A stretch of 64,000 bases of DNA from the NCBI RefSeq assembly GCF_030013595.1, contig NZ_CP122769.1. One strand, written 5' to 3'. The notes beneath the pieces are model-generated. The model was not told where the DNA came from and made no database searches. It saw nothing but the letters and a program-made list of their open reading frames with translations. This document shows, piece after piece, positions 1 to 64,000 of the stretch. This DNA is from Escherichia coli (lineage in GTDB: Bacteria > Pseudomonadota > Gammaproteobacteria > Enterobacterales > Enterobacteriaceae). Every line of letters begins with the position of its first letter. Within the stretch, counting starts at the first letter, position 1. Position numbers and translations under genes: made by a program.

Positions 1-1107
1 CAGGCCATCTACTCCTTCAGATCCTCAGGAGGAGTCAAAATATTTCAACAGTTTGAAAAACACTTCAGACCTAACATATTTTACTTAAACACATGCTTTA
101 GGTGTGAACCTGAAATTTTAGAGGTGGCCGGAGCACTGATAGGAAAGAATGTTTACCGTTATGCCAAAGAGTTACGCTCGGCAAAAAAGGGAGGAGGAAA
201 GGTCACTTTTCGTTCATATGTAGATATGGAGGAACAGATACAGGGTATTTTAAGCCTTATAAATCAGGATCCACATGGATGGGCAATTCTAAGCCGCAAT
301 AATGCTCACTTGGATGAGCTAGAAAGTTTGATCGAACAGCCAGTAATTCGTTACGGAGGTAAATCATTCTGGGATGAAAAAGAAACAAGCGATGTGTTAA
401 GCCTTATGGCCTTTTTCCGACAATCAAATGATCCTCGCTTAATGAAGAGAGTATTGGCATTGTTTGGAGAACAGGAATCAGTTTTGGATGATGTGGCATT
501 GAGTATGAGAGGAAGAAAAGTTACTTTTGGCGACCTTGCCATCCCGGAGGACAGTTCTCTCGAAACAAAAACATTACATTCAAACTTCGTGCGCTTTACC
601 CAGGAAAGTACTGATAAAGTTGAGATAGCAAAACGTTTCGCCAACCTTACGAAATGGATGGAATCGTCGTCAATCAAGATGAGGAGTAATAAAGGTACAG
701 CAACCTTAACAAAAATTGCTTTAGACACTTGTAAACAGTGGGCAGAAAAGACTGGTTGGATGAATATGATCAATCGTGCTGCTGCAATGTCATTAGGCCC
801 TAGGAAGAAGGACGAGGAATACAGCCCAGAGAAAGTAGTCCTATCAACCTTGCATGGTTCAAAGGGTCTTGAGTGGAATAAAGTAATAATAATGAGTTGT
901 AATGCGGATCAGATACCAAGTAAAAGATCAGTTGGGGAGGAGGCAATAGAAGAAGAAAGACGTTTGCTTTATGTTGGATTTACGCGTGCAGAAAAGCAAC
1001 TTTTTGTAATGTGGTATGGTGACCCTTCTTTCTTTTTAAGAGAATGCAGTGAAGAAAAGATAAAAGAAGCAGCTAATATTCGAATTTCTCCAGTTTATAC
1101 AGAATAA
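1..1107 (+). CDS. UvrD/Rep-family SF1 DNA helicase, C-terminal part (5' end lies outside the window)
   Basis: Reading frame is open from nt 1 with no stop. Helicase motifs in translation: IYSFR (motif III-like), LNTCFRCEPEIL (motif IV-like), VLSTLHGSKGLEW (motif V), LLYVGFTRAEKQL (motif VI). Confidence 0.8.
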   Translation, partial: QAIYSFRSSGGVKIFQQFEKHFRPNIFYLNTCFRCEPEILEVAGALIGKNVYRYAKELRSAKKGGGKVTFRSYVDMEEQIQGILSLINQDPHGWAILSRNNAHLDELESLIEQPVIRYGGKSFWDEKETSDVLSLMAFFRQSNDPRLMKRVLALFGEQESVLDDVALSMRGRKVTFGDLAIPEDSSLETKTLHSNFVRFTQESTDKVEIAKRFANLTKWMESSSIKMRSNKGTATLTKIALDTCKQWAEKTGWMNMINRAAAMSLGPRKKDEEYSPEKVVLSTLHGSKGLEWNKVIIMSCNADQIPSKRSVGEEAIEEERRLLYVGFTRAEKQLFVMWYGDPSFFLRECSEEKIKEAANIRISPVYTE

Positions 1108-1501
1108 TTCGATATGGGCATTTACTTATGCTTAAAGCTATAGTATAAAAACAATGAGCTTAAATATCAGCTCCCAAATTTGAGTAACTTTGCTTAAAGT
1201 TACTTTCGCGTTAAGCGTTGATTTAGCCGTGAAAAGCGGCCAGCTTAAACAAGCTGTAAGACACCACCGGCAAAATGTCACCTTTGTCGCTGGTGCACTT
1301 CCCATGCCTGAAAAAGGCAATCTGAATTTACCAAACCGTAACTAATTTAGCTCCTCCTGGAGCTATTTTTGTTGCGTACTTCTAATGCCAGATAGTATAA
1401 ATCAGGCGGTTCATAGCTTACGGGAGATGAATGACAGGCTTTGCCTTCGTGTTGAAACAAAAAATTGTTTCTTCCTTCTTACTATATATAGGTGACCCCA
1501 A

Positions 1502-2374
1502 ATGTCTAAAAATAAAGCTCGCAGTAAAGCCCTTCATCAAACCTTTAGTGAAATTATTCCAGAGATGGATAAGGCGCTAAACAAACAGCTCTTAGAAGTT
1601 CTGATGAAATATACAGAACGTGATAATGAACTGATTGTTATTTTGAATGAGGACGGCCCAAATATCATTGAACTTAAGTCTCTTAAGCCTGTGTCTTTGT
1701 TGGCCGAAAAGCTTTCTGCTTATTCAAGCTATTATCATGTGGATGTTGTGGAGCTCGTGGTCAAGAAAATTGATTTCGAAGGAGCTTATAAGCTTCTTAA
1801 AGCTTCCCCAGATGTACCACTTTTTAAAAGCTTAACTGAACTGGATAAATATCTTGTTGAGGAGTTTGAAAAATACGGATTAAATTCATTTCTTGACGTG
1901 GATAATCTGGATTACTCACTTGAAAAAGCCAGTGAACTCAAAAATGAGCAGTTAATAAATTGGGTTTCGGACATCATTTGCAAACGTGAAAAATTAACTT
2001 TACGTAAGCGTTTTGATGTCGCAGTAAAGGCCCACTACGAAAATGTAGAAAAAATGTATGATACCATTCGTCCGTTAATGAAAAAACTGGGTTTCCCAGA
2101 AGATCTCATGACGCACACCTTTAGTGAGTTAAGCGTTTTTGAAACTAAAGGATGGGACCATGCAATAAAATCGAAAATTGAGACTCTCGCTAAGCGTGAA
2201 ACTCAATATTTAGATGATGCGGCTAAAGCAGAGAATCGACGTCTTGTAACAGAGAAGTTGGAGAACTCTTTAGCGATTGCACCAACTAAACCAACAAGAA
2301 ATTGGTTACATATTGCCGGAATTGCCTGTTTGGTAGTCTGCACGTTCATGTATGTAACTAATAAATTTATTTAA
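1502..2374 (+). CDS. hypothetical protein with C-terminal transmembrane anchor
   Basis: 290-aa ORF, ATG preceded by purine-rich stretch; hydrophobic C-terminus (WLHIAGIACLVVCTFMYV). No recognisable family. Confidence 0.5.
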   Translation: MSKNKARSKALHQTFSEIIPEMDKALNKQLLEVLMKYTERDNELIVILNEDGPNIIELKSLKPVSLLAEKLSAYSSYYHVDVVELVVKKIDFEGAYKLLKASPDVPLFKSLTELDKYLVEEFEKYGLNSFLDVDNLDYSLEKASELKNEQLINWVSDIICKREKLTLRKRFDVAVKAHYENVEKMYDTIRPLMKKLGFPEDLMTHTFSELSVFETKGWDHAIKSKIETLAKRETQYLDDAAKAENRRLVTEKLENSLAIAPTKPTRNWLHIAGIACLVVCTFMYVTNKFI

Positions 2375-2431
2375 TCCTGTTAAGGGGGAACCCTAACGGG
2401 GCTTCTCTTTGAACAAATCGAGGAGCGGAAA

Positions 2432-2809
2432 ATGTCATATCTTGAATATATCAATGAAGTAAAAGTGTCCGGGATAGTTATCAGTGCTGTGGAGAAAAAA
2501 ATGACTGACCAGAGTATAGGTTTGTTAATAAAGCTCAAAAATAGGATGAAGACAGAAGTTGATGGTGAAATCACTGAGAGAGAATTTTCAGTTCAAATCA
2601 AGGTGTCGCCTGAAATGTATTCAACCTGTTTCACTGGTATAAATCAGGGTGATGAGTTGATGGTCTCCGGTTATATTGTTGTCGATACTATTATGATTGA
2701 AGGGAGAGAACATCCTCTTGACTACATGAGAGTGGTAGCAACAAGTAAGTTGGCTCACATACCTAAACCTCTAAAAGGTTTTGGACAAAGTAGCTTTAAT
2801 CAGATCTGA
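2432..2809 (+). CDS. hypothetical protein, possible OB-fold ssDNA-binding-like
   Basis: 125-aa ORF with RBS GAGGAGCGG upstream. Alternating beta-strand pattern (NEVKVSGIVIS ... EFSVQIKV ... ELMVSGYIVV) loosely resembles SSB OB-fold; assignment is weak. Confidence 0.4.
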   Translation: MSYLEYINEVKVSGIVISAVEKKMTDQSIGLLIKLKNRMKTEVDGEITEREFSVQIKVSPEMYSTCFTGINQGDELMVSGYIVVDTIMIEGREHPLDYMRVVATSKLAHIPKPLKGFGQSSFNQI

Positions 2810-2829
2810 CATTAAACCCACCCTAAAGG

Positions 2830-2860
2830 GGAGAAATCCCTTCATGGGATTTCTCCTTTT
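2830..2860 (+). terminator. intergenic stem-loop (11-bp perfect stem GGAGAAATCCC/GGGATTTCTCC, loop TTCAT) followed by TTTT
   Basis: Perfect inverted repeat read directly from sequence, T-run downstream, sits between stop of upstream ORF and RBS of next ORF. Confidence 0.5.
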
Positions 2861-2869
2861 GGAGTCCCC

Positions 2870-3847
2870 ATGAAACAAAAATTTAGGGCTACTGCAATAA
2901 GTAGTAATCAACTTAGTTTTTTTTCTATACTCGATATAGATGAAGATGAAATAACGCAAATAGTTGATTCACCCAAAGAGCATTTAAATGATGCTTACAC
3001 GTCCGGATTAAACTTTAAATCAGAAGAAAGTAACATTTCTGAGATAAATTATGATTCTGAAAGGCGTGAAAATCACCTTTATGAAAAATCCAAATTACTT
3101 AAAAATCAGATTTTGCATACAATTAATTTTGCAGCAGAAACAGATTATCTATATACGGTTGAAGAATATAACCCAGATTTGGGTGGTCTGGTAATAGAAT
3201 GGACCCCTGAGGATGTGTATGTTGTTTTTCTATCCGCTATGGAAGAGTCTTTGGAAATCATTAAAGAACTAGTGTTGAGGAGAAAGTTATTCTTCAAAGA
3301 TGACAATGGTAATATCACAGTGAATCCACTTTTAGAAGCTGAAACACGGTGGTATATGTCAAAATCATTTGAATACACTTGTTTATCTCATGGACTTGAT
3401 GCATGTGAATTTAGAGCGGAATTAAAATCATGGCTCTATTATCATTCGCATCGTTCGATTAGTGAAAACACGAAATTAGCTGAATGCAGGAATGATGATG
3501 AAATCATTTTGCATGATTGCAATGACGATATGGGCTGGGACATCTTCTTTGATCAGGATTATTTAATGTCAGAAAAAAAACTGGCTGTTAAATGGACTGA
3601 CAGGGAAATTATGGATGTTTACATAAAAGCTTTTAAATCCACATTAGAGTTGTTTGACGAGCTTGTTTCATGTGATCTGTTAACTAAACGAAACGCTTTT
3701 GGCAAGTTAGAAATCAATCCAATATTCGAAAATCATTTTGAATGGATCATGTCTGAAGCTTTTGAAATAGTGGGAAATCATCTTGGTTATAATGTGCCTC
3801 AAATCAGGAAACTGATGGCAACTATTTGCCAAATGAATCTCAAATAA
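2870..3847 (+). CDS. hypothetical protein
   Basis: 325-aa ORF, co-directional with neighbours, preceded by stem-loop and GGAG-like RBS. No recognisable motifs. Confidence 0.5.
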   Translation: MKQKFRATAISSNQLSFFSILDIDEDEITQIVDSPKEHLNDAYTSGLNFKSEESNISEINYDSERRENHLYEKSKLLKNQILHTINFAAETDYLYTVEEYNPDLGGLVIEWTPEDVYVVFLSAMEESLEIIKELVLRRKLFFKDDNGNITVNPLLEAETRWYMSKSFEYTCLSHGLDACEFRAELKSWLYYHSHRSISENTKLAECRNDDEIILHDCNDDMGWDIFFDQDYLMSEKKLAVKWTDREIMDVYIKAFKSTLELFDELVSCDLLTKRNAFGKLEINPIFENHFEWIMSEAFEIVGNHLGYNVPQIRKLMATICQMNLK

Positions 3848-3904
3848 AATGCCACTGGCAAACATCTGCCAGAGGGCGGTGTTTGCATTTTACCGGAGTT
3901 AAAA

Positions 3905-4963
3905 ATGTCTAATGCCGCTATGAAGTTAAATGAAACATCTTCTGATGCTTATGAAAAATTAGAAGCTCTTCTTTCCCCGGATGTTATAAAGTTAAAACAT
4001 TATGTGGATAAAGGTGAGTATCTTTTAGTTCTAGCAAAGGACCTTTTTGGTATTCCAGAAATGGATCCAAAGATGGCTGTGCCTGTTTTCAAAACTAAAA
4101 CCTCGTATCGAGCTCCGCTGAACAAAGACTACATACCAAATCCCCGAATACTTGAACAAGTGGTTAAACTGCTTATCAGTCCGGATATAGATTTAAGTGT
4201 GTGTCTTAAAGGTGAGTCCGGTTCTGGCAAGACTGAAATGGTAATGTACATTAGCCACATGATGAATTGGCCGCTGACAATTAAGCAGATCAACAGCAAT
4301 ATTCGAGTTGATGAGCTTGAAGGTGAGCGCAGTCTTAATGGTGGTAATACAGGTTTTGTACACAGCGATTTGGTAACGGGATTTCGTAATGGTCACCTCA
4401 TTCTTCTGGATGAAGTGGACAAAATCGATCCTGATACGGCAGCAAAACTTCACATGCCCATTGAACGTAAGCCCTGGTCACTCAGTGCTAATGGTGGTGA
4501 GGTTATAACTGCTAATGGCTACACGCGATTTATTGGTACTGCAAACACAAACATGAGTGGAGGCGCTCGCCGGTTCGTTTCTTCTCAACGTCAAGATGCA
4601 GCTTTTATAAAGCGGTTCTTGATAGTTGAAATGGAGAAGCCCGACAAAGTTGCTTTAACCAATGTGCTTACTAAACGATATAGCTCTTTGCCTTTTCAGG
4701 TCATTGAGAAGTTCGTAAGAGTAGCGATTGCAGTAAATGACTCTGGTACAGAAGACAGTGTGATGGATATTCGTCAATTAGTAGCTTGGGTTGGCACGTC
4801 GATGACGTTAAAAACCTTTAGTCTTCTTGACACTTTCAAAATAGCTTTTGCTTCTGCTTTACCTTTACATGTGGTCGATCTTGTTCTTCAAGCTATAGAT
4901 CTTTCTCTTGGCGAAGACAAGGATAAATCGCTGGAGTATTTCACAGCAAAAAAGTCGAGTTAG
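3905..4963 (+). CDS. AAA+ ATPase, MoxR/CobS-like
   Basis: Walker A GESGSGKT, Walker B HLILLDEVDK, downstream sensor-like FIGTANT; size and motif spacing typical of MoxR/CbbQ/CobS-type AAA+ proteins. Confidence 0.8.
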   Translation: MSNAAMKLNETSSDAYEKLEALLSPDVIKLKHYVDKGEYLLVLAKDLFGIPEMDPKMAVPVFKTKTSYRAPLNKDYIPNPRILEQVVKLLISPDIDLSVCLKGESGSGKTEMVMYISHMMNWPLTIKQINSNIRVDELEGERSLNGGNTGFVHSDLVTGFRNGHLILLDEVDKIDPDTAAKLHMPIERKPWSLSANGGEVITANGYTRFIGTANTNMSGGARRFVSSQRQDAAFIKRFLIVEMEKPDKVALTNVLTKRYSSLPFQVIEKFVRVAIAVNDSGTEDSVMDIRQLVAWVGTSMTLKTFSLLDTFKIAFASALPLHVVDLVLQAIDLSLGEDKDKSLEYFTAKKSS

Positions 4964-5094
4964 ATGGGATTTGTTATGAAACCTCTGATATTTGTATCTC
5001 AGAGTTATCCCATCTTGAATTTAGTGCGTTTTTAAGTACGGATGGTGCTGCTACCATTGCTATAGCAAAAAACGGAACTAATTTTACTGGACTT

Positions 5095-5268
5095 ATGCAA
5101 CTGAATAACGACTATTCTTTATTGTTTTATCATGATGGTAAAATAAATATGGAAGGTCTGATTAAACAAATGGAATTAAAAGGTTATATGTATCAGGGAG
5201 CAATGGGCAATGATGATGTTGTTGCTGAGTTTCCCGGTATTCTTTTAATTTCACCAGAGAAGCTTTAA
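5095..5268 (+). CDS. possible small ORF (57 aa) in otherwise unexplained 355-bp gap
   Basis: ATG..TAA ORF (MQLNNDYSLLFYHDGKIN...) ending immediately before a stem-loop cassette like those that follow other genes in the array. No RBS checked; speculative. Confidence 0.2.
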   Translation: MQLNNDYSLLFYHDGKINMEGLIKQMELKGYMYQGAMGNDDVVAEFPGILLISPEKL

Positions 5269-5280
5269 TATCAACCCTAT

Positions 5281-5320
5281 CGGGAAATCTTTCCCGTTGG
5301 GGAGGGTTTCCCCTTTTTTT
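5281..5320 (+). terminator. double stem-loop cassette (CGGGAAA-TCT-TTCCCG and GGGGAGGGTTTCCCC) followed by T7
   Basis: Two adjacent palindromes and a T-run read from sequence, immediately upstream of RBS GGAGAAACCC and ATG at 5319. Confidence 0.5.
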
Positions 5321-6458
5321 GGAGAAACCCATGACTTTAAATACTTCAATGCTTAACAAAGTATCTGCAAAACAAATCTCTGAGAATTTTGCAAAATCAT
5401 ATCCAGATTTACTGGAAGGTGCAGTTATAACAAAAATTGAAATAAGTGGCTGTCAAGGATCGCGTCGAACCGATAAAATCGATTTGTCTTATGATGGAGA
5501 TGATATTACGGATCAAAAAAGCGTATCTAAAAGCGAAGTACGCTGGATTGACATAAAAGCCCTTAGCTTCAAAAGTACGATTACCAGCAGAATATCAACT
5601 CTTTGCTCACGCTTGTGCATCCGCTATAGCAATATGTGGATTTTACCAGTATCCAGTATGGAAGAGTTTCTGGAAGGGGCCCAAGAGATTGAACGAGAGT
5701 TTCAGGCAGGTATTCAAAACGTTGTAGACAATTATGAGATGCATATTGAGGCTGAAAAAAATAGAAGCCCAAGAATGTCTTCTTTGATTGATCAGTTGAA
5801 ATTAACTAAAGATGATTTCATAAAATCCTTTAGATTTAATATTGCTCACTTTATTCCTTTTACGCCTATTAGCGTTGAAGGTGATGAAACCCAGGACTAC
5901 TATCAGGAACAATTGATAACAGATCTGGCAGAAGAAGCAATGAAGGTTTATGAAAAAATTAGCAAAAATAACAATTTGCGCTCAAGTACTATTGACCGAC
6001 TGAAGCAAATGCAAAATAAGATCATTAGCTTCATGTTTATACATAAAGAGGCGGCAGTACTTGCAGAAGCTATAAAACACATAATGAATAATTTACCTAA
6101 AGGTGCCATTTCTGAACCTCGCGACGTTGCGGTGTTACAGCAGTGGTTTTATTTCATGAGTGATGCTTCAATGTTAAAGCGTATTATTTCAGGAGAGCAA
6201 AAGGTTACTGACTGGTTGGAATCTATTACCAGATCATTTAATCAAAGCTCACAAACAGAACCGAACGCGCTACAGAACACAGGTATTGAAGCTATTTTAG
6301 ATTCAACAAATGTGTTCCAGGTTGAACCTGTCGTAGAGAACGATATAAATAACAGCACGTTTTCAAACACTGATCCTGTAGCTGAACCTGAGAAATCAGT
6401 TTCGCAACAGGAAGACAATGTTGAAAATTGTTTTGATATCGAGCTCAAAGGCTGGTAA
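5319..6458 (+). CDS. hypothetical protein
   Basis: 379-aa ORF between the AAA+ ATPase and vWA genes; no recognisable motifs. Position suggests it belongs to the same module. Confidence 0.5.
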   Translation: MEKPMTLNTSMLNKVSAKQISENFAKSYPDLLEGAVITKIEISGCQGSRRTDKIDLSYDGDDITDQKSVSKSEVRWIDIKALSFKSTITSRISTLCSRLCIRYSNMWILPVSSMEEFLEGAQEIEREFQAGIQNVVDNYEMHIEAEKNRSPRMSSLIDQLKLTKDDFIKSFRFNIAHFIPFTPISVEGDETQDYYQEQLITDLAEEAMKVYEKISKNNNLRSSTIDRLKQMQNKIISFMFIHKEAAVLAEAIKHIMNNLPKGAISEPRDVAVLQQWFYFMSDASMLKRIISGEQKVTDWLESITRSFNQSSQTEPNALQNTGIEAILDSTNVFQVEPVVENDINNSTFSNTDPVAEPEKSVSQQEDNVENCFDIELKGW

Positions 6459-6477
6459 CTGTTTGCTTTATTAAAAA

Positions 6478-6520
6478 CCCCAGATGGGTACTTCACCATC
6501 TGGGTGAGTACCCCTTTTTT
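6478..6520 (+). terminator. intergenic stem-loop with two mutually exclusive pairings followed by T6
   Basis: CCAGATGG/CCATCTGG and GGGTACTTCACC/GGTGAGTACCC alternative stems, then CTTTTTT; lies between stop at 6458 and ATG at 6536. Confidence 0.5.
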
Positions 6521-6535
6521 ATAAAGAGGTATTCT

Positions 6536-8554
6536 ATGAAATTAGATCTTAAATCATCACCGCGCCATATTAAGCGTTTACAGAATATAGCAAAAGTCAT
6601 TAGCGGCTTAGGCGATGTAAGAGTTGTAATAGACGACAATACCAAAGGACCGTATTTTGATCCTGTAAATAAAGTTTGTGTTTTACCAAACGGCGATTAT
6701 AGCGATGATGACTTTGTCAGTCTGATTGAAGGTTTTACCTGTCATGAAGCTGGTCATGGTCGCTATACCGACAGCGAGGTTTACAGTGACGCCTTTAATA
6801 GTGTTCTCAAGTCATCTGAAGGGTTTACACGCTTCGATGACGGAATGAATGCAGAGTTTGAGAGCCTCGCTGAGAAACGTAAAGCTTATAGCAGGGCAAA
6901 ACGTCTTACCGGGCTTATAAATCTGTTCGATGATGTACAGATGGAAGAGAAGGTTGGTAACGATTATCCGGATGCAAAGCGGCGGCTTGCAGCCACTTAC
7001 GCACTGATGGTTAAAGCCGGAAGGATGACTCCTGATATATCTTCTCGTCCGGAAAATCCTGTCCTATTTATTGAGTGGTATCTGCTTAACTCATTGCGAG
7101 TAAAAGTCCTTCAGCAGGCAGGTCACAAAGAAACACTCGATCCGTTTTTTGACTATGCCCAAAAGATACTTTCTCCAGTAATTTCTGATGTTGAGGAAAT
7201 TTTTCATGATGCTCTTGGTTGTGAAAATACTCAGGGCTGTGAATCCCTTGCTCGTAAGACCCTGGCTCTTTTAGAGAGACTGCGGGATGAGGCAAGGGAA
7301 CAACAGCAGCAGACAGAGCAGGAGGAGCAGGAGGCATATGATGAATCCGAGACCGAGACCGATACCGATACCGATACCGAATCAGAAGATAAATCGCTTG
7401 AGTCGACTGATAGTCGTGAGGATGATTCTGAGGACGATAGTGAAGGTCAGGCAGATACTTCCGATAACTCTGATCTTGCTCAAGAGGGATGTTCTGAGCC
7501 TTCAGAACTTGCTGAAGATAACGAGGGAAATAATGAACCCACCGGTGGCAATCCCACAGGTGATAACATTATTGAAGACGATACTGATGCGATTAACCCT
7601 TCCGAGAGTGAATCAGATGAAGCCAGTTCGACTAACGTTGAAGATGAAAGTAACTTTTCATCGGCTCAATGGGAGATACTGGCAGATTTGTTGGATGCCT
7701 TTCTTGGCAGTGATGAGGATAGCGAAGATTATCACGATGCTTTGGCTAAAGAGATTGAAGGTATTGCATCAAAAGTATCCGATGACGTGAAAGCCGAATT
7801 CGGTGCTTCTGAATGGGATATCCCTGATCTCCTTATCGATTTGAATGTTTACAATGAGGCTTTGTCTCTGAGTCATTCAATCGGTAGCGACTTGTCTGTT
7901 TTACAGCAGGTTAAAATGCGTGGCCGAAACAAAACTCATGAGCGTGGAATTACCTTCGATGGAAATCGATTAATTCTGTCACCAATGGGAGTTCGTGATG
8001 TCTTCAGAGCTCAAAGCGAATCTAAAAATAGAGGGCATGTTGGCCTCGTATTAGTTCGTGATATTTCAGCGTCAATGGCTAATGATGAAAGATATATTCA
8101 TGCCATTAAGTCAGATCTTGCTTTATCGATGGCCGCTGAAAGTTTGTCAAAAATGCATGTCTCCAATATAGTCTTTCCCTTCAAGGAAAGTGAATTTGAG
8201 ATTATCAAAACGTTTGATCAAAGCGTTGAGGAATCTCTATCGAAATTCACTCTTGGATGTAAGGGTTATTATACCCCTACGGGATCGGCTTTAATGGCAG
8301 CTGTTGATCTGTTACTTGACAGCCAATTCGATAGGAAAATAATTTTTCTTATAACTGATGGTTATCCGAATAAATCGGAATTTACTATCGGCGAAGTTAT
8401 GGAAAAGGCTAAATGTAATGGAATAGAAATCGTTGGTGTTGGTATTAAGACTGATGAAATAATTGGTTTTGAAACGGACACTTTCGTAACAGTTGATGAT
8501 ACTTCTTTATTGTCTATTGAAGTCAGTAAGCTAGTTCATCAAATACTTTCTTAA
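6536..8554 (+). CDS. von Willebrand factor A (vWA) domain protein, CobT-like, with N-terminal HExxH motif and central acidic low-complexity region
   Basis: C-terminal MIDAS-like motifs LVLVRDISASM and FLITDGYPN; N-terminal CHEAGHGRY (HExxH); central D/E/S/T-rich stretch including ETETDTDTDTESED encoded by hexanucleotide repeats. Confidence 0.75.
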   Translation: MKLDLKSSPRHIKRLQNIAKVISGLGDVRVVIDDNTKGPYFDPVNKVCVLPNGDYSDDDFVSLIEGFTCHEAGHGRYTDSEVYSDAFNSVLKSSEGFTRFDDGMNAEFESLAEKRKAYSRAKRLTGLINLFDDVQMEEKVGNDYPDAKRRLAATYALMVKAGRMTPDISSRPENPVLFIEWYLLNSLRVKVLQQAGHKETLDPFFDYAQKILSPVISDVEEIFHDALGCENTQGCESLARKTLALLERLRDEAREQQQQTEQEEQEAYDESETETDTDTDTESEDKSLESTDSREDDSEDDSEGQADTSDNSDLAQEGCSEPSELAEDNEGNNEPTGGNPTGDNIIEDDTDAINPSESESDEASSTNVEDESNFSSAQWEILADLLDAFLGSDEDSEDYHDALAKEIEGIASKVSDDVKAEFGASEWDIPDLLIDLNVYNEALSLSHSIGSDLSVLQQVKMRGRNKTHERGITFDGNRLILSPMGVRDVFRAQSESKNRGHVGLVLVRDISASMANDERYIHAIKSDLALSMAAESLSKMHVSNIVFPFKESEFEIIKTFDQSVEESLSKFTLGCKGYYTPTGSALMAAVDLLLDSQFDRKIIFLITDGYPNKSEFTIGEVMEKAKCNGIEIVGVGIKTDEIIGFETDTFVTVDDTSLLSIEVSKLVHQILS

Positions 8555-8625
8555 TAAACTCTACCCAATCGGGGCAAAAGGCCCCGGTGGGTCTTTTTGC
8601 TCCATGAAGGAATAAGGAGCAAAAT

Positions 8626-8847
8626 ATGACTCAGATAAAAACTTACCGTGTAGAACATGAAAAAGTCGGTGCGATGCATAAAGTCCGTATTTTCGGACGT
8701 GTTGGTGAAGTTATAAGCAATGATAGCCCTCAGGAAAGAATCTTCCGCGAAGTCACTATAGCGGAGGGTAATAGCCAGCAGGCTGCGTTACTTGTAGATA
8801 ACTACATACAGCGTCTTGAGAATAATGGCTTCACGACTGAAGCATAA
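8626..8847 (+). CDS. hypothetical small protein (73 aa)
   Basis: ORF with strong RBS AAGGAG upstream; no recognisable motifs. Confidence 0.4.
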   Translation: MTQIKTYRVEHEKVGAMHKVRIFGRVGEVISNDSPQERIFREVTIAEGNSQQAALLVDNYIQRLENNGFTTEA

Positions 8848-8852
8848 ATGTT

Positions 8853-8876
8853 GAGGGCCCCCGGGCCCTCTTTCTT
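8853..8876 (+). terminator. palindrome GAGGGCCCCCGGGCCCTC followed by TTTCTT
   Basis: Perfect GC-rich palindrome directly after the stop at 8847, followed by a T-rich run. Confidence 0.45.
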
Positions 8877-13761: not shown

Positions 13762-15731
<1,970 letters not shown>

Positions 15732-55290: not shown

Positions 55291-55365
55291 AATGTGTGGT
55301 TATAGGGTTGGAGACTATAAAATGCACATATAGGTACGTATCAATGTCGTTTTTAGGGTACGATC

Positions 55366-56208
55366 ATGGCTAGGGGTAGGCGTCTCAAATCCTATTTGGA
55401 TTATGAAAATGCGCTAGGTGACGGCATAGGAGTGGGCTATGGCCAAAGTTATCAGCCCTGGCTTAGAGCTCAGGACGTTAAATCCCGTGGAAACCGTTCG
55501 ATAGTCTTTGGCCTTAAGACGTTTCGAAACCATCATCTCCTTTCTTCTGTCGAAAGTAACTTTTTCTATCTGGCTGAGTTTAATGACTCGGTGATTGATA
55601 TCCGGGAACAATTCCCACTCTTTCCTCTCCGGCTTACCCAACAAATAGCAAATCATCTACATTTTCAACATCCTATGGTGAGGGGAGTAAGAGGAGTACC
55701 TGTCGAAGTTCTGAATGTTATGACAACCGATTTTTTACTGACCTTGAGAACTCCTGAAGGCGGACTTCGATACAAAGCTATAGCAGTAAAACATAACGAG
55801 AGCATACCTGAACGCGAAGCCCAAAAACTTGAAATAGAGAGGATGTTTTGGCAGTTGATTGATGTTGAGTTTCAAATTTATGTTGGCTCGGAACTCAATA
55901 ACGTCGTCGGTAAAAACATTTGCTGGGCTACTTCTGTATTAAGAGATGGTTCTGAATTTTATGATAAATATCCTCTTGATAAAATCCTATGGAAGCTTAA
56001 ACCAGATGTTTATCCCATAGTAGGACTACGTGCAATGATTTCATCAATCTTTGGGGTAGATGCACAAGAAGCGATGATGTTATTGCAGGCAATGATTGGA
56101 TTAAAAATGATAAATGTTGATTTATCATATCCAATACTCGAAACCGGTCTGATAAAGATAATTTCCAATGACCACTATATAGGACTGAACGCAAATGGAT
56201 ATTATTAG
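55366..56208 (+). CDS. tnsA: TnsA-like endonuclease
   Basis: Colinear with Tn7 TnsA (YQPWLRAQDV..., HLLSS, IDIREQFPLFPL, LEIERMFWQ). Confidence 0.85.
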   Translation: MARGRRLKSYLDYENALGDGIGVGYGQSYQPWLRAQDVKSRGNRSIVFGLKTFRNHHLLSSVESNFFYLAEFNDSVIDIREQFPLFPLRLTQQIANHLHFQHPMVRGVRGVPVEVLNVMTTDFLLTLRTPEGGLRYKAIAVKHNESIPEREAQKLEIERMFWQLIDVEFQIYVGSELNNVVGKNICWATSVLRDGSEFYDKYPLDKILWKLKPDVYPIVGLRAMISSIFGVDAQEAMMLLQAMIGLKMINVDLSYPILETGLIKIISNDHYIGLNANGYY

Positions 56209-58318
56209 GAATTCAGTCTGGCTCTCTCAAGGCACTGATTTGCTTGCAGAGGGACTTTACCGTGTTTTGGATTTTGACAGAAAGGTCGATTTGTTAATTT
56301 TGTTTAAAATAAAATCAGAAAGAACGGGTAAGCCAATCCCTTTCTCATTTTCAATGTTTAAATATTATATTGAATCAAATAGCATAACTTGTAAAGATTA
56401 TATATATCCTTCATATATGTTAGTAGATGAGAAAGAATTAACAGATAAAGACAGAGGAAGGCGAGATGAAAATTACAATATCATTAAAGATCTTGTAGAT
56501 GACAGAATGTTTCTGTTCGACTATGCATTACATAAAAAGTCGCACCTTTTAATGGATTACTCAAGAAATAAAAAAATATCACAATATACTATCAGAACGC
56601 TTCTGGCGTTGTATTGGCGACATGGGCAGGATATTTATGCATTGCTACCCGCATTCTCGAACTGTGGCGCCGCTGGGAAAAGTAGAATCAAACATGAAAT
56701 TAAACTTGGGAATTCCAAAAAAAACAGAGCATTACCTAATGAACGATCACGTGTTTTCATTCTTAATGAAAGAGATATAAATAATATTAGAAAATCTCTC
56801 ATTACGTATCATTATAAAGTTAACGGAGATACGATAAAGAAAACATTAGAGAGACATATTGATTTGTATTTTAGGGATGAAATTAAAACAGCAAACCTAG
56901 AAAATAGAGCTCCATATGTTCCTTCTTTAAAACAATTTTCATACTGGAATAAAAAACTCTTCACTAAAGATTTCTCGATAAATAAGAAGAACACGAAAAA
57001 AGAAATAGACCTCAAAATGCGGGCGCTTTTAGGTAGTGTGGCTAATACAACTGTTTTGCCGGGTGATGTTTTCGAAATAGACTCAACTGTCGCTGATGTA
57101 CATCTTATTTCGAGTTTAAACAGACGAAAAGTCATTGGGCGTCCTACTATTTATACAGTGGTGGATCGTGCAACAAGAATGATTGTTGGCCTTCATGTTT
57201 CTTTATACCATGCTTCATGGCGAGCCGCCCGACAAGCGTTAGCAAATTGCTTTATGCCAAAAAAAGAATATTGTAGATTATTTGGAATCTCTATTACTGA
57301 TGATGATTGGCCTTGTTCTCACATTCCATTAACATTGATGTGTGACAACGGGGAGATGATTGGTCTTAAACCTCAGGAAGAGATGACCCCCCTGACAAAA
57401 CTTGAGTTTGCGCCAGTCGGTAGAGGCGACAGAAAAAGCATTGTTGAACGCTGTTTCGGCATTCTGAATGATGAGGTTATTCATAGGCTTATTGGAACAA
57501 CACGAAGGGGAAAGATTGTTAAAGGAGAGCCAACACCGCAATCCAGGGCTTGTTTAACGATTCAGGAGGTCACGTCTTTACTGATTCGGGAGATACTTGC
57601 ACATAATCAGAGAACGTATGAGGAACTGGCTTATATCAATCCCTTACTGATTGAAAATGATCTCGTAATATCACCAAAAAATAGTTGGATGATAAGCTTA
57701 AAGCACGGGAGATTCAGCGCAAGAGCCGTTGGGGCCGACGAAGTGATCGCACGATTGTTAATCCCTGTGAACGCTAACATTACCGCCGGTGGGATTCAGT
57801 ACAATAATCTTTTTTATGAATGTGATCCTGAAATTGCATCAGGTGTCAGAGTATTTGGAAGAACCACTTGTGAAGCAAGAATAGATGACAATTGCGTAGA
57901 TTATATATATGTAAGATTTGACAAAAATAGCATTTTCAAAAAACATTACCTACTTAAGAAAAGAGATGTATTTAAAGGGAAAGCTCATCTTGATACAGAT
58001 GTAATGGCTGATTGGGTAGATACTCAAAAAGAAATTAATTTATTTACTCTGGATTCGCTCAGCAATATCAATAATAAAGATGAATTTAACAGGAAAGGTA
58101 ACGAAAGATTAAATGAAATATACGAATCTCGCCGGGTACATGGTAAAGATATTAAAAAGAACAGAAAAAATGAACTTGATTCATTAGGGCGAACTCATGT
58201 TGCTAATGGAAGATCTGAACCCCTACTTCCTTCATCCAGTAATGTTCTGCTTTTGCCTGGCCGGGAGGAGAAACAAAGATGGTTAAAAGGTAAGAAGAAG
58301 ACTGAGGACGCAGAATAA
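56195..58318 (+). CDS. tnsB: TnsB-like DDE transposase
   Basis: 707-aa product in TnsB position, overlapping tnsA stop; Mu/Tn7-type transposase organisation. Confidence 0.8.
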   Translation: MDIIRNSVWLSQGTDLLAEGLYRVLDFDRKVDLLILFKIKSERTGKPIPFSFSMFKYYIESNSITCKDYIYPSYMLVDEKELTDKDRGRRDENYNIIKDLVDDRMFLFDYALHKKSHLLMDYSRNKKISQYTIRTLLALYWRHGQDIYALLPAFSNCGAAGKSRIKHEIKLGNSKKNRALPNERSRVFILNERDINNIRKSLITYHYKVNGDTIKKTLERHIDLYFRDEIKTANLENRAPYVPSLKQFSYWNKKLFTKDFSINKKNTKKEIDLKMRALLGSVANTTVLPGDVFEIDSTVADVHLISSLNRRKVIGRPTIYTVVDRATRMIVGLHVSLYHASWRAARQALANCFMPKKEYCRLFGISITDDDWPCSHIPLTLMCDNGEMIGLKPQEEMTPLTKLEFAPVGRGDRKSIVERCFGILNDEVIHRLIGTTRRGKIVKGEPTPQSRACLTIQEVTSLLIREILAHNQRTYEELAYINPLLIENDLVISPKNSWMISLKHGRFSARAVGADEVIARLLIPVNANITAGGIQYNNLFYECDPEIASGVRVFGRTTCEARIDDNCVDYIYVRFDKNSIFKKHYLLKKRDVFKGKAHLDTDVMADWVDTQKEINLFTLDSLSNINNKDEFNRKGNERLNEIYESRRVHGKDIKKNRKNELDSLGRTHVANGRSEPLLPSSSNVLLLPGREEKQRWLKGKKKTEDAE

Positions 58319-59766
58319 TGAATCTTATACGGCGCGTTTCAGCGATATATAAAGAACAGGAGTTACCTGAGTATCGTGGCAATCCCTTAATTGAAGCACT
58401 TCCTGAAGCGCTTACGGAAGATGAAGTACTTCTGGAAATGAGTTATTTCCCCGAAATTGACGAAAAAATCCGCTGGACTGCCCCGGCGAATGTTAGAGAG
58501 CAGTATGTCGAACGTATAAAGAAATTCCGTTGCCCTCAAACCAATCTTATCCAGGCTTATAAGATGATCTTACGGGCACTTAGGGAAAGCTATGCAGCTC
58601 GTAATCCTTTAAAAAGCGGAACAATTCAATATCTTCATTACTATGGAAATGAGCGTCCTGATATTGAGCCAGAAAGTGGATATTTTAAATCCCAGGCTGA
58701 AACTATTACGATAGTTGGAATGAGTGGTTCTGGAAAAACTACCATGATTGAGCAAGTCATGGAACATTTCCCTCAGATTATAGAACACAGCAGCTATAAA
58801 GGAGTTTTTCCCGGCTTCAGTAAGCAAATTGTATGGGTAAAGATTAATTGTCCATACAATTCAAGTGTGAGAGACCTTTGTGAAGAGATTTTACAAAAAT
58901 TAGATGATGCAATTGGTATTGAACGAACTACACCTGAGATTAGAAATGGTGCTCTGGCTCGCCAGATTGCACAAAGAATTAAATCATCATTTTTGGGTAT
59001 CCTTGTTATTGATGAAATGCAGAGGCTTAAATTTTCAAGAACCGGGGGTGAGAGTAAGTTGATTGATTTTTTACATGAAATTGTAGATTCCATGGGGGTA
59101 TCTATGGTTTTTTGTGGAAATCATCCTTTTGACGAGACGCTGACAAAGAAAATGAGAATTGCCAGGCGGGCAGAGTCTGGTGGTTACATGAAAATTAAGA
59201 ATGTTAGATACGATTCACAAGACTGGCAATCGTTTATTCATTATTTATGGCCATTACAATGGACAAATGTTGAAACTCCATTAAATGATGAGTTAAACGA
59301 AAAATTATTCATTTTATCTAAAGGCAATATTGGATTGGCTCAGATGATTTATCGGGGGGCACAATTAAAGGTTATCGGTAGCGGCAATGAAATCATCACT
59401 GGCGCAGTCTTGTCGGCCTCTGTACCGGTACTCGTGAGTCATACGGAGGAATATAAGGATACTCCACTCCCGGGGGCCGCGACTGAAGATGAGGAAGCTA
59501 AATGGCTCTCTGCATCTAATGAGGGTGATGCTTCGGCTAAAATCATGGCAGAGAAGTCCCTAAAGTCTTTGATCCCTGGGGATATAGACAGGCCACAGCA
59601 CAAGGAATTCGTAGGAAAAATAGACGAGGTTTTGCGCAATTTCGACGAGAAAATACTGTCTCTTGACCACGATCTTGTTATCAACAGAACAGCTGAAAAG
59701 AAAAATACCTACGATGCTCTTCAGCGTTGCGGGCTTATAAATATAGATCCACTTAATAAATTGTAA
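58318..59766 (+). CDS. tnsC: TnsC-like AAA+ ATPase
   Basis: Walker A GMSGSGKTT, Walker B LVIDEMQRL; start overlaps tnsB stop. Confidence 0.85.
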   Translation: MNLIRRVSAIYKEQELPEYRGNPLIEALPEALTEDEVLLEMSYFPEIDEKIRWTAPANVREQYVERIKKFRCPQTNLIQAYKMILRALRESYAARNPLKSGTIQYLHYYGNERPDIEPESGYFKSQAETITIVGMSGSGKTTMIEQVMEHFPQIIEHSSYKGVFPGFSKQIVWVKINCPYNSSVRDLCEEILQKLDDAIGIERTTPEIRNGALARQIAQRIKSSFLGILVIDEMQRLKFSRTGGESKLIDFLHEIVDSMGVSMVFCGNHPFDETLTKKMRIARRAESGGYMKIKNVRYDSQDWQSFIHYLWPLQWTNVETPLNDELNEKLFILSKGNIGLAQMIYRGAQLKVIGSGNEIITGAVLSASVPVLVSHTEEYKDTPLPGAATEDEEAKWLSASNEGDASAKIMAEKSLKSLIPGDIDRPQHKEFVGKIDEVLRNFDEKILSLDHDLVINRTAEKKNTYDALQRCGLINIDPLNKL

Positions 59767-59797
59767 TGAGGTAACAGTTCGTAACGGTCAAAGAGAG

Positions 59798-61363
59798 GTG
59801 TGGGAAATGAGAATGTTGCCTGTTTTGCCTGATGAATCCTTGTTCAGCCGGTTTTGTCGGACAACTACCGTGTACGGTATGTCCCCATCTTCTCTGTTAA
59901 CGATCATTTTCAACAAACCTGATATGAACGTCCATCCAATTCTCAATTCAGGATTAAAGGCTATTTCTCTTCATACATCCGAAAGTGCAGATCAGCTCTG
60001 GCATGAACAGACTTTACTCCCTCTTTTTGCCTGGGCACTACCAATCAGTCGTAATGAAATTATGGATTTCAACACGACCCCTGCCAGGCTTAATCGATTG
60101 TGCCGCCTTAGTAATTTTTCACTAGGGCAGCGCACACTATTGAAGTTTTGCCCGGTTTGCGCTCGTGAAGATACTTTTCATTATGGTGTTACTTATTGGC
60201 ATCTGGCGCATCAGCTTCATGGGGTTACAACCTGCCATCGGCATCCGGTAGCGCTTGAAAGCATCCATGTCCCTTCTTCACCGCACATACGTATTGGACT
60301 GATGCCTCCTGTTTCGTATACAGAACAACTTAGCAATGAGATAGACTTCGATTTTGCTAAGTTTTGTTATGAGTCCCTAAATATAATCAGAAGAAAAGAT
60401 ATTACACACCCCAATTACATGGATGTACTTAAAAAGTTGAATTTATTATCATTGGATGGAAATTTAAAGAAAAATGTATTCTACGCACATGTTTATGCTA
60501 AGTGCCAGTTATTTGGGGAGGGTTCATCGGGACTTATACCAACATCCCTAACTGATTATCATTACTGGGAGCCTATACTCAAAGACAAATGTTGTCAGCA
60601 TCCCACAAAGCATCTTTTGCTTTGTTATTGTTTGTTAAATACTTGCTGGCCAACGTATGCAGGAAGTCGTACTAATAAAAAGAAAGAAATCTTTAAAAGT
60701 CATAAGAAATACAGTTTTCATATAGTTGAAAATAATACTAGTGTTAGCAACCTTGGGAAGGAATTTAGTCGCAGCAGATGTTACATTAAAACACTTATTT
60801 ATAAAAAATACCTGAGGGCGTTTAAGCGAAACACAAAAATTAATATATTCACTGAATTGCTTATCAAGTCTATGGCTGTAAGGGGGTTTAGTCTGGCATC
60901 CATAGCTGAGAAAAACTCATTATCGGAAGGAGCTGTATCCTCTGTAATTTCATCTTGTTACGGTTTATGCTCATGGCGTAAAAAATGTAAAAAAGATTCT
61001 TTAAGACGGCGTCATAAGCAGAAAATATTAAGATTTATACATAATCAATCCGTTTCTATAACACGAAAGTTAGTCAAAGAAAGTTGTTATGCAAGTTTCT
61101 ATTGGCTAAATAAACATGAATGTGACTGGCTTAATTCCTGTCTTCCTAAAACAATACGATGCTATAAAAATAAAAGAGTAGACTGGAGCGAGAGAGATAT
61201 TATCTCATCATCATTAATAAATGATGTTTTATCTCAGGGGCAGTACTCGATGTCACTTACAAGTCTAGATGCTTTACTGGGAGGGCATGGCTGGCTTTTG
61301 AAATACAGAGATAAACTACCAATGACAATGATACTTCTCAGAAAAATGGAACTAATTAAATAA
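59798..61363 (+). CDS. tnsD: TnsD/TniQ-family target-selection protein
   Basis: N-terminal zinc-finger pattern CPVCAREDTFHYGVTYWHLAHQLHGVTTCHRHP characteristic of TniQ/TnsD. Confidence 0.7.
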   Translation: MWEMRMLPVLPDESLFSRFCRTTTVYGMSPSSLLTIIFNKPDMNVHPILNSGLKAISLHTSESADQLWHEQTLLPLFAWALPISRNEIMDFNTTPARLNRLCRLSNFSLGQRTLLKFCPVCAREDTFHYGVTYWHLAHQLHGVTTCHRHPVALESIHVPSSPHIRIGLMPPVSYTEQLSNEIDFDFAKFCYESLNIIRRKDITHPNYMDVLKKLNLLSLDGNLKKNVFYAHVYAKCQLFGEGSSGLIPTSLTDYHYWEPILKDKCCQHPTKHLLLCYCLLNTCWPTYAGSRTNKKKEIFKSHKKYSFHIVENNTSVSNLGKEFSRSRCYIKTLIYKKYLRAFKRNTKINIFTELLIKSMAVRGFSLASIAEKNSLSEGAVSSVISSCYGLCSWRKKCKKDSLRRRHKQKILRFIHNQSVSITRKLVKESCYASFYWLNKHECDWLNSCLPKTIRCYKNKRVDWSERDIISSSLINDVLSQGQYSMSLTSLDALLGGHGWLLKYRDKLPMTMILLRKMELIK

Positions 61364-61374
61364 GAGGGAGTTAT

Positions 61375-62301
61375 ATGGTTTACGAAAATGAATTGTGGCA
61401 CAGTTTTCTTCTGCGTTCACAGATAATGTATAACTTATCCAATTGCAGGAACATAATATCAAAGCATGGCGCACTAAGGTACGATGCCTTTCCTCGTTTC
61501 GAACTGATTGATATGTACAAATTGCATAGCTTGCAGGATATATATGACATTCTTGCCACTAGAAATGGTTATATACTAACTTCCAATATAGTGTCGTTAT
61601 CTTCTGGTGTTTACGGGTATTTTAACGCTGTTGAAGATGCCTGTCGGAAAAATTTTCACATAACTAATTCATATCCATTGGTAAACATCTCAAACATTCG
61701 TTACTGTCACAAATGTATTGTTGAAGATATACACTCTAAAGGCATTGGTTATCTGCGTCATAGATGGTTGTTTGAATCTAAATGTGCAGTTCATAGTACC
61801 AGTTTATATGAGGTTTGTTTTGATAACTATTTGAATGCAGTGAAAGGACTTAGTGACTTAATTATAAGTGGAATAAATCCTCATGGTTATTGTTCCCTTG
61901 TGGTTGACGTTTCAAACCCTTTCAAAAATCCAGTGTATATATTACCATGTGCACGTAATAAAATTTTAAAATGGATTTCGGACAATAAAAATATGCTGAT
62001 TTACTTTCTCTTTGATCTCTTCAAATGTAAGTCGCATTCAAGTTTATCTAAGGTTATCGAAGTCAAGATAATGCATGATAGATATATTTCTGCGGTGTTC
62101 AAGATGTTAAGTGAAGTTAATTTTTGTAATTTCAACTCATTTATTTCTGATATTTTTGAGGACGTAAGTTATGCCTCTATCGGACTTGATGATTATTCTG
62201 TTAATGTGCATTTTCTCAGGCTAAGGGCTGCAGATTGTAAATTTTGCCAGTTGAATGGTAAATATTTTTGCTCACTTTACAATGTAAAATTTCTTCGCTA
62301 A
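61375..62301 (+). CDS. second TniQ-like protein (308 aa) in the position normally held by TnsE
   Basis: Repeats the TniQ-type pattern CHKCIVEDIHSKGIGYLRHRWLFESKCAVHS; too short and dissimilar to be Tn7 TnsE. Confidence 0.45.
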   Translation: MVYENELWHSFLLRSQIMYNLSNCRNIISKHGALRYDAFPRFELIDMYKLHSLQDIYDILATRNGYILTSNIVSLSSGVYGYFNAVEDACRKNFHITNSYPLVNISNIRYCHKCIVEDIHSKGIGYLRHRWLFESKCAVHSTSLYEVCFDNYLNAVKGLSDLIISGINPHGYCSLVVDVSNPFKNPVYILPCARNKILKWISDNKNMLIYFLFDLFKCKSHSSLSKVIEVKIMHDRYISAVFKMLSEVNFCNFNSFISDIFEDVSYASIGLDDYSVNVHFLRLRAADCKFCQLNGKYFCSLYNVKFLR

Positions 62302-62653
62302 TTTCACTTCATTTATAAAATACTAAGAAAGCTAGTTAGATAAGGTTTTATATTTTGACTGGGGCAGGAATAAATTATCACTCATAGAGTTTCCCTGGGG
62401 GTTACCACCTGTGTATGATGCCGGTTAGCAACAACGTCTAAAAGACCTGCGATCACGTGGGTCCCTCTCCAGCAAAGGGGCAAGGGGTGCTATATAACGG
62501 TGTACTGCTTACCCAATACGGCCTTGTATTTGAAAGATGCCGCATCTTGGCAGGATTCGTATTACAGCCTATAGTCTGTTAATGAGCATTACAGCCTATA
62601 TGCTGTAAATCCCTGCGTTATGCTTGTTAACTCGTCGATACGGAAGGTCACTT

Positions 62654-62953
62654 ATGAACACTCAATACGCTTTGAAGACTTTGAATCAGTTACGTCCTGT
62701 TTTAATCGGCTTTCGCAAAGCCAATGGACTGACGCAAAAAGATGTTTCTGAACGTTTGGGTATAACACAGCAAACTTATGCCCGACTAGAGGCCAACCCT
62801 GCAAGTGCGGGTTTTGAGCGTTTGTTTAGGGTGTTCAGCGTCCTTGGAGTGGAGATCGTACTTTCATCCAGGGAACCATTGTCAGATGCAAAGCCCGAAT
62901 ACGGAGCTATGCACAATTATTCTTCACTTCCAGCCAGGCGGGAGAAATGGTGA
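62654..62953 (+). CDS. hipB: orphan HipB-like HTH protein inside the Tn7-like element
   Basis: About 80-85% identical by eye to the HipB at 48990-49286 (LNQLRPVLIGFRKANGLTQKDVSERLGITQQTYARLEANPAS); upstream palindromes ACAGCCTATAGTCTGT / ACAGCCTATATGCTGT; no hipA follows. Confidence 0.7.
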   Translation: MNTQYALKTLNQLRPVLIGFRKANGLTQKDVSERLGITQQTYARLEANPASAGFERLFRVFSVLGVEIVLSSREPLSDAKPEYGAMHNYSSLPARREKW

Positions 62954-63516
62954 CGCCTGGCGCTTCCCGGTCTAATTTTTCTTCAACAAGATTAACCCCT
63001 TAGCGGCCTGAAGTATCAGGTTGCGATAGAGCCTTTCATTTCTTCTGTTATGTTAAATACACCATTTTGAGCTATTTCGCTCGGCCTTAAATTATCTCTT
63101 CATTCTTCAGTGAAAATTTTATGTCGATCACATTATCGATGAATTTAGGAAATAATCCGTAAATGAAAATCTATCTTCTTTTAAATTCATCAGTGTCAGT
63201 AGCAAATATTACGCATAAAAGAATGGTTATTATTATCATTTAAATTATAAAGCTCATGAGTCAATTCCAAAAAATATAATAAGCATTGAAATCATTACCC
63301 GTGATTCTGGAGTTTTAACTTTGCCATGTAACCAACCACAAGTTAGTTTCCGGTGTTTTGAGGGGCAGTAAAGTTCTGAAAGCGCGACCAGATCATAATC
63401 CCGAAATGTCGTTAAGATATTCTGAATAACGGTTATCCCTGCTTGTTGGCAGGCATTTGAAAATATATTTTGTATTCAGGTTGCAGCAAAACGCTTTCTT
63501 ACACACAGGACTTCAT

Positions 63517-64000
63517 ATGCGGCTCAGAAAATTAAAACTGAAAAACTTCAGAGGCTACAGAAACTCTACTGAAATCATTATTGATGAAAGCATGACGGGT
63601 ATTGTCGGTCGTAATGACTTTGGGAAATCAACGCTTCTGGAAGCGCTGGCTATTTTTTTTGAAACAGAAGGAATGAAGGCTGACAAGAATGACATGAACT
63701 GTTTCAGCCTAAGAGAAGGGGACGGCCGTTTTGAAATAGCCTGTGAATTTGATGACCTGCCCGATTTTATCATGATCGACGACAGGGTGCAGACCACGCT
63801 CGCCTCAGAACATCTGCTGAATGAGGACGGCAATTTTGAAATCGTCAAAACGTTTAAAGCAACGACCTCAGGAAAACCGGAGCAGACCTGCATCCGCTGC
63901 ATCCACCCGGATGAGGAGCCCCTGAGAAATTTACTGGGCATGAAAATTTCTGAGCTCAAGGCGGTGGGAAAAGAAGTTGAAAAAAATGTGGCGGATAAAC
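63517..64000 (+). CDS. OLD/ABC-type (AAA_15/21-like) ATPase, N-terminal 161 codons; 3' end outside window
   Basis: ATG with RBS CAGGA; N-terminus MRLRKLKLKNFRGYRN...GIVGRNDFGKSTLLEAL (Walker A) typical of OLD-family/defence-associated ATPases; no stop before window end. Confidence 0.65.
   Translation, partial: MRLRKLKLKNFRGYRNSTEIIIDESMTGIVGRNDFGKSTLLEALAIFFETEGMKADKNDMNCFSLREGDGRFEIACEFDDLPDFIMIDDRVQTTLASEHLLNEDGNFEIVKTFKATTSGKPEQTCIRCIHPDEEPLRNLLGMKISELKAVGKEVEKNVADK

Follow-up and report, generated by a model that had tools for sequence, protein, structure and literature searches.

Compositional mosaic and modular build of an IncHI2 resistance plasmid stretch from Escherichia coli

The stretch of 64,000 nucleotides analysed here, referred to as the window, comes from Escherichia coli contig NZ_CP122769.1 (assembly GCF_030013595.1). 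With a probability of about 0.9, it is part of an IncHI2 conjugative multiresistance plasmid whose mosaic of guanine-plus-cytosine (GC) content reflects a modular build. An ancient AT-rich IncHI backbone (GC about 0.37-0.44; 1-24.5 kb and 53.4-55.2 kb) would have been inherited vertically within the plasmid family. Into one of its genes an insertion sequence (IS) of the IS21 family with host-like GC (0.54) would have transposed very recently, and a 20-kb tellurite-resistance ter module (0.51) lies just beyond the end of IncHI1/IncHI2 synteny. A Tn7-like transposon would have inserted by Tn7-type cut-and-paste beside a remnant of the backbone, and an IS1-linked deletion would have taken out 7.8 kb of backbone including the plasmid hns gene. 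The general pattern would be one of AT-rich 'selfish' machinery and adaptive cargo near chromosomal GC. This mosaic is the already known layout of an IncHI2 resistance plasmid.

Identity of the window and its GC mosaic

The window differs across all 64 kb by only one T7/T8 homopolymer indel and three mismatches from NZ_CP117034.1, a Salmonella IncHI2 plasmid of 232,119 bp from pig faeces that carries mcr-1 and is typed in PLSDB as IncHI2A, MOBH and MPF_F. The assignment of the backbone to IncHI2 is based on this near-identity to typed IncHI2 plasmids and on trhI, which adjoins the conserved gene block. Two Salmonella IncHI2 plasmids are 100% identical to the first 24 kb, and at least 80% of 1-24 kb is covered in 1072 plasmid records. 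The other R478/mcr-1-type IncHI2 plasmids (NZ_CP117034.1, pSA186_MCR1 and pTJWQ005) are near-identical, and the trhI-to-hha backbone, the ter locus and the hipBA region are common to all. According to the annotation of NZ_CP117034.1, the gene order runs from the 3' end of trhI through plus-strand hypothetical and domain genes, istAB, and backbone with a Tus-like gene, a tyrosine recombinase and hha, to the ter genes, hipBA with an HNH gene, IS1, two hypothetical genes, and tnsA, B, C and D. The homopolymer difference lies at 5321, about 10 bp upstream of the start of the DUF3150 gene, with T7 in the window and T8 in NZ_CP117034.1; it could reflect either sequencing or true variation within a translation-initiation region.

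The GC content of the window is 0.449 and that of the whole plasmid 0.454. Interval (circular binary) segmentation on 50-bp bins, with 20 bin permutations as the null, gave the following segments:

1-13800: GC 0.390
13801-15600: GC 0.553
15601-25000: GC 0.412
25001-39350: GC 0.516
39351-39900: GC 0.325
39901-53300: GC 0.500
53301-64000: GC 0.390

The log-likelihood gains of these segments were 37-323, compared to a permutation maximum of 16.8. A greedy binary segmentation was also tried and was dropped, as it missed the IS21 island. Length-weighted GC at third codon positions (GC3) was 0.37 in the backbone, 0.65 in the IS21-family element, 0.56 in the ter module, 0.51 at 46-52 kb and 0.33 in the tns genes. 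By Mann-Whitney tests, GC3 differed between backbone and ter (p=3e-8) and between ter and tns (p=3e-4), and no difference was seen between backbone and tns (p=0.57). Along the gene order, GC3 had a lag-1 autocorrelation of 0.66, a value reached in none of 2000 gene-order permutations. The initial annotation had described a compositional mosaic by eye, and segmentation, codon GC3 and the gene-order permutation all bear this out. Its labels for the individual blocks hold in part: the 1-24 kb array and the tns module are AT-rich and the IS21 and ter blocks are GC-richer, but only in relative terms (ter 0.512, IS21 0.536), and the cargo of the Tn7-like element lies at 0.50. A GC content of 0.51-0.54 is about the level of enterobacterial chromosomes.

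It could be argued that such differences only follow from the make-up of the proteins, the functions of the genes or local fluctuation by chance, without historical meaning. GC at first and second codon positions likewise differs among the blocks, and AT-rich intergenic spikes exist within the GC-richer block, such as that at 39351-39900. However, the difference is largest at GC3 (0.33-0.37 vs 0.56-0.65), no permutation of bins or gene order matches the observed clustering, and the segmentation places the GC steps of the IS21-family element within 140-190 bp of its ends. An explanation of this type is therefore very improbable.

Backbone, inserted modules and their junctions

The 1-24 kb array had previously been described as an acquired block. 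This did not survive comparison with the IncHI1 plasmid pHCM1: 25 of 25 genes that lie between trhI and the end of hha are collinear in the two plasmids at 48-90% amino-acid identity, and IncHI1/IncHI2 synteny stops directly after hha. Moreover, per-gene GC3 of the window correlates with that of the pHCM1 orthologs (r=0.83). Because of this collinearity and conserved GC3, the region 1-24.5 kb is read from the sequence comparison as the conserved ancestral IncHI backbone, the recipient of the other blocks and not itself acquired. The likeness to the IncHI1 plasmids R27 and pHCM1 lies in these 25 collinear AT-rich genes and their gene-by-gene GC3 correlation, while the differences of pHCM1 are its merely partial amino-acid identity and the lack of a ter module at the position after hha. 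The features of this region are as follows:

1-13660, plus strand: AT-rich IncHI backbone, part 1, GC 0.39; 3' end of trhI (1-1107), then hypothetical, AAA ATPase, DUF3150, VWA and toprim genes, all on the plus strand
15787-24545, plus strand: IncHI backbone, part 2, GC about 0.37 up to about 19.7 kb and about 0.44 beyond
20802-21764: Tus-like gene in backbone part 2
22981-24162, minus strand: tyrosine recombinase gene in backbone part 2
24333-24545: hha; the product matches PF05321 with 68 bits
24546-26153, plus strand: IncHI2-specific transition zone, GC about 0.45, with a gene of 360 codons (24906-25988) whose product has a CoiA_N-like motif (Pfam)

Part 1 is about 100% identical to NZ_CP117034.1 and 99.3% identical to the R478-like plasmid pCFSAN096147, and its orthologs in pHCM1 are collinear at 48-87% amino-acid identity. 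The sub-step of GC inside the backbone near 19.7 kb (from about 0.38 to about 0.44) has a counterpart in pHCM1, where GC3 likewise rises past about the 18th gene. Among the hypothetical genes of about 300 codons in this block, only one clear pair of paralogs was seen, the adjacent genes 16134-17072 and 17244-18200 (27% identity over 309 amino acids, E=1e-36). No homolog of the transition zone is present in the compared pHCM1 segment, where IS1 and mer come after hha. The site after hha (24546) is thus followed by IS1 and mer in pHCM1 and by the CoiA_N-like gene and ter in IncHI2, which suggests that DNA has inserted there repeatedly.

The comparisons show that DNA has inserted into this backbone, where the insertions begin and end, and in which order the recent events took place. 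The insertions include the IS21-family element:

13661-15786, plus strand: IS21-family insertion sequence, GC 0.536, GC3 0.62-0.66; istA at 13762-14934 and istB at 14934-15731
13657-13660: left copy of its target-site duplication TTAA, with the right copy at 15787-15790; the left copy can equally well be read as 5 bp, TTAAT

IstA matches NF033546 with 281.9 bits (cutoff 160) and IstB matches PF01695 with 297 bits (cutoff 24.1). The element splits a backbone gene of 306 codons that is intact in pSA186_MCR1, the empty site, and the blastn alignments to that empty site overlap by 5 bp. The junction was set by blastn, since walking along exact matches was misled by a single-nucleotide polymorphism and was discarded. 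The termini, TGT...ACA with 11 of the first 14 positions matching, were fixed by a second, identical and inverted copy at 181063-183188 of NZ_CP117034.1, which has its own target-site duplication, CCTGG. Copies at least 99% identical to the element were found in only 2 of 72,556 plasmid records and in none of 5,426 E. coli genomes, where the best match was 91.6%; its insertion is therefore the most recent event. Among the R478/mcr-1-type IncHI2 plasmids, this plasmid and one sibling record alone have the two rare copies. Compared to the IS21 archetype, the element shares istA and istB, a length of about 2.1 kb, TGT...ACA ends and target-site duplications of 4-5 bp, but its nucleotide identity to elements annotated as IS21 is only about 88%.

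The second module holds the ter genes:

26154-46171, both strands: ter module, GC 0.512, GC3 0.56, from the annotation of the record
39351-39900: AT-rich intergenic stretch of 550 bp between the divergent ter gene sets, GC 0.325

The minus strand carries a kinase gene, a PP2C phosphatase gene, TerY/VWA genes, terW and biosynthesis-like genes, and the plus strand, from 39887 onward, carries terZABCDE(F) and a VWA gene. Both the annotation and AMRFinder calls of terW, terZ and terD at 96-100% identity identify an R478-type ter locus. A single high-scoring segment pair of 20,018 bp, spanning exactly 26154-46171, matches the chromosome of E. coli O104:H4 at 97.9% identity and gene for gene; in that chromosome the ter island is bracketed by IS21 and IS66 remnants. 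The chromosomes of O157 have only 32783-45170 (about 12.4 kb) in common with the window, at 97% identity, and the ter search gave 707 matching places on E. coli chromosomes. The chromosomal islands of O104:H4 and O157:H7 share the ter gene set of the window, with 97-98% of nucleotides identical, and in O104:H4 they share its 20-kb extent, but they differ in being chromosomal islands with IS-remnant flanks in place of a plasmid backbone and, in O157, in being only about 12.4 kb long. The ter module is a discrete unit and is old in IncHI plasmids; a preprint counts it as core in every IncHI clade but the R27-like one (10.1101/334409). The intergenic stretch 39351-39900, kept in the chromosomal ter copy too, includes at 39686 one of the most AT-rich 200-bp windows (GC 0.26), and its sequence makes it a candidate regulatory region or nucleation site for nucleoid proteins.

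Between the ter module and the Tn7-like transposon lie the following features:

46172-52599: variable IncHI2 region, GC 0.48, with hipB/hipA (48993-50616), an HNH endonuclease gene and small open reading frames
52600-53367, plus strand: IS1, 768 bp, GC 0.535
53368-55207, minus strand: backbone remnant, GC 0.42, with two hypothetical genes, contiguous with backbone in pTJWQ005

Only 87% of the variable region aligns with pCFSAN096147, at 95.9% identity and in rearranged form. IS1 has no target duplication, and its flanks are unlike (AGCCTTCCG vs GGCAGCATC). According to blastn and annotation, it takes the place of a 7,808-bp piece of backbone that is present in pTJWQ005 (14601-22408 of the compared sequence) and contains helicase and H-NS-family genes, so that this plasmid differs from other R478/mcr-1-type IncHI2 plasmids by an IS1-linked deletion of 7.8 kb that includes helicase and hns. 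A reading of the AT-rich stretch at 53.4-55.2 kb as part of the Tn7-like element was considered and rejected, because pTJWQ005, which has no such transposon, carries the stretch as contiguous backbone.

The last module is the tnsA-proximal end of the Tn7-like transposon:

55208-64000, plus strand: Tn7-like transposon, tnsA-proximal end and transposition module, GC 0.384, running past the window
55366-56208: tnsA; the product matches PF08722 with 58 bits
56195-58318: tnsB; full-length alignment of the product to Tn7 TnsB (PDB 7pik), E=1.5e-49
58318-59766: tnsC; the product matches AAA_22 and TniB
59807-61363: tnsD, 518 codons; TniQ match of 71 bits and TnsD match of 57 bits
61375-62301: TniQ-like open reading frame, 308 codons; sub-threshold TniQ match (E=6e-4, 20.9 bits, cutoff 27)
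62654-62953: helix-turn-helix gene, followed by the start of an AAA ATPase gene

The whole transposon is 33,186 bp long, with its far end at 127460 of NZ_CP117034.1, and carries sil and pco as cargo. It is two-toned in GC, with about 0.39 in the tns module and 0.50 in the sil/pco cargo. A 5-bp target duplication, GGTCC, lies at 55203-55207, and pTJWQ005 represents the empty site with a single copy. The termini are TGT...ACA with 17 of 23 positions matching, the near end beginning TGTCCGAGG, and the repeat TAAAGTTGTA, which resembles a TnsB site, is found 4 times across both ends. Of 1183 matching records, 425 covered at least 80% of the junction in one place. The protein at the TnsB position had no match in Pfam or NCBIfam even at E<=10, and it was a sequence search of PDB that found Tn7 TnsB. 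No TnsE-like protein was found, and the class is therefore called 'Tn7-like' and not Tn7. The open reading frame of 308 codons that follows tnsD may encode, judging by its sequence, an additional target selector that replaces TnsE. Tn7-like sil/pco elements in IncHI2 and their transposition into the chromosome have already been described (PMC8417528, PMC7355605, PMC4855149), including an island of about 33.7 kb after transposition into the E. coli chromosome (PMC8417528). The element resembles the sil/pco islands of pMG101, R478 and pig E. coli in the order of tnsABCD, sil and pco, in its length of about 33 kb and in the 5-bp duplication, and differs from them by an internal IS1 in the present copy. 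The tns module of the pCFSAN096147 copy is 95.5% identical to the one in the window.

GC steps, block histories and separate origins

The initial annotation had also named GC steps at the block boundaries as a check and had proposed that the four blocks had separate origins. The first holds for the IS21-family element, the only block with sharp steps (+0.19 and -0.18, about the 99th percentile of window positions), and fails elsewhere: the edges of ter are loose and the end of the Tn7-like element is without a step. The second holds for three blocks, with the IS21-family element, the Tn7-like element and ter being discrete units with their own histories, but not for 1-24 kb, which is backbone. 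That these are discrete units is shown by target-site duplications, by the empty sites of sister plasmids and by the ter module in chromosomal islands; composition alone did not reveal it.

Several observations weigh against the modular reading of the mosaic. At the ter edges, the GC change is gradual (29th-92nd percentile). No significant step exists at the Tn7-like end 55207|55208 (16th-83rd percentile), since it is preceded by 1.8 kb of backbone that is AT-rich as well; the large-scale drop of GC in fact lies at the right end of IS1, 53367. The Karlin dinucleotide signature did not separate the blocks, and since the noise between the halves of single blocks (27-66) is about as large as the distance between blocks, the signature cannot test separate origins at these block lengths. 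Additionally, the core status of ter (10.1101/334409) implies that 'acquired' may mean very anciently acquired, and the ter genes may have been transferred from plasmid to chromosome or the reverse, both directions being possible.

Identity to the R478-like plasmid pCFSAN096147 is 99.3-99.5% in the backbone, 97.3-97.9% in ter, 95.9% at 46-52 kb and 95.5% in the tns genes, and this block-specific divergence implies partly separate block histories. In the R478-like NZ_CP044256.1, identity drops stepwise along the window from 99.4% to 97.6% and 95.5%, which may point to recombination among IncHI2 lineages or to differing rates. How old the composition classes are can be judged from the third codon positions of conserved residues: identity there is only 0.50 between the backbones of the window and pHCM1, and 0.45 between ter of the window and a diverged ter on another IncHI-type plasmid. 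Despite this divergence the GC3 class is kept, with 0.37 vs 0.42 in the backbone and 0.56 vs 0.50 in ter. The classes thus outlast near-saturation of synonymous sites and are not the simple signature of a recent, un-ameliorated import.

These results bear on the possibility that the four blocks arrived serially from donors of differing GC, the differences being donor signatures that have yet to ameliorate. Three of the four blocks are indeed separable units, GC3 differs strongly among them, and divergence from another IncHI2 lineage is specific to each block. Serial arrival is nevertheless unlikely. The first block is a vertically inherited IncHI backbone; the GC3 classes are kept at third-position identities of 0.45-0.50, which makes the signal long-lived and no transient trace of donors; and the two AT-rich blocks are indistinguishable by GC3 and by dinucleotide signature.

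H-NS, Hha and the loss of plasmid hns

Xenogeneic silencers favour AT-rich DNA (PMC7074111), and in the IncHI1 plasmid R27, transfer is repressed at 37 C by H-NS and Hha (PMC7366339). IncH plasmids have an H-NS homolog of their own, Sfh/HppH, regarded as a 'stealth' factor (PMC7544231). As a proxy for binding, 100-bp windows of at least 65% AT were counted; these form 28-37% of windows in the AT-rich blocks and 0-2% in IS21 and ter. H-NS-motif-like sites, likewise only a proxy, are enriched in the AT-rich blocks and track AT content. A literature search for chromatin immunoprecipitation sequencing of H-NS on IncHI2 found no paper. From the IncHI1 literature, targeting of the AT-rich parts by H-NS is plausible. 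That host H-NS would occupy these parts jointly with plasmid Hha is an inference, as is any reason given for the persistence of the composition classes.

A stronger form of this idea is that selection keeps the compartments. The AT-rich backbone and tns genes would be silenced by H-NS/Hha, giving thermoregulated transfer and low cost, and the cargo of host-like GC would escape silencing and answer to its own regulators. The GC3 classes persist through nearly saturated divergence, as in the IncHI1/IncHI2 correlation of r=0.83, and the split in GC between machinery and cargo recurs inside the Tn7-like element. The repression of R27 transfer, the presence of hha at the border of backbone and ter, and the enrichment of AT-rich windows and H-NS-motif-like sites, as far as these proxies go, all agree with selection. 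However, mutation bias or nucleotide cost can also make mobile elements AT-rich. Moreover, tblastn gave no match to hns anywhere in the 232-kb plasmid, other H-NS homologs included, although hha is kept; across plasmid records, the hns region was found in 860, compared to about 1,150-1,180 IncHI2-type records, so that about one quarter have no plasmid hns. The plasmid H-NS homolog is therefore dispensable there, though host H-NS may still exert silencing. Selection on compartments is thus a possible but doubtful alternative to modular assembly as the source of the mosaic. The related proposal, in which both GC compartments of IncHI plasmids, AT-rich and host-like, would be regulatory domains under active maintenance and not donor traces, is rather unlikely.

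As a discovery, the mosaic matters little, being ordinary and already known. A caution can be drawn from it: GC steps flagged real modules, yet they misplaced the limits of these modules and mistook the recipient backbone for an import, and the true boundaries came from presence/absence comparison with sister plasmids. That a lineage of mcr-1 IncHI2 plasmids has lost its plasmid hns offers a modest lead to studies of plasmid cost and temperature-dependent transfer. If the compartments were actively maintained, the hns-deleted lineage, which has kept Hha and tens of kb of DNA with 38-40% GC, would be a natural experiment, and such lineages should differ in titration of host H-NS, in fitness cost or in the temperature control of transfer.

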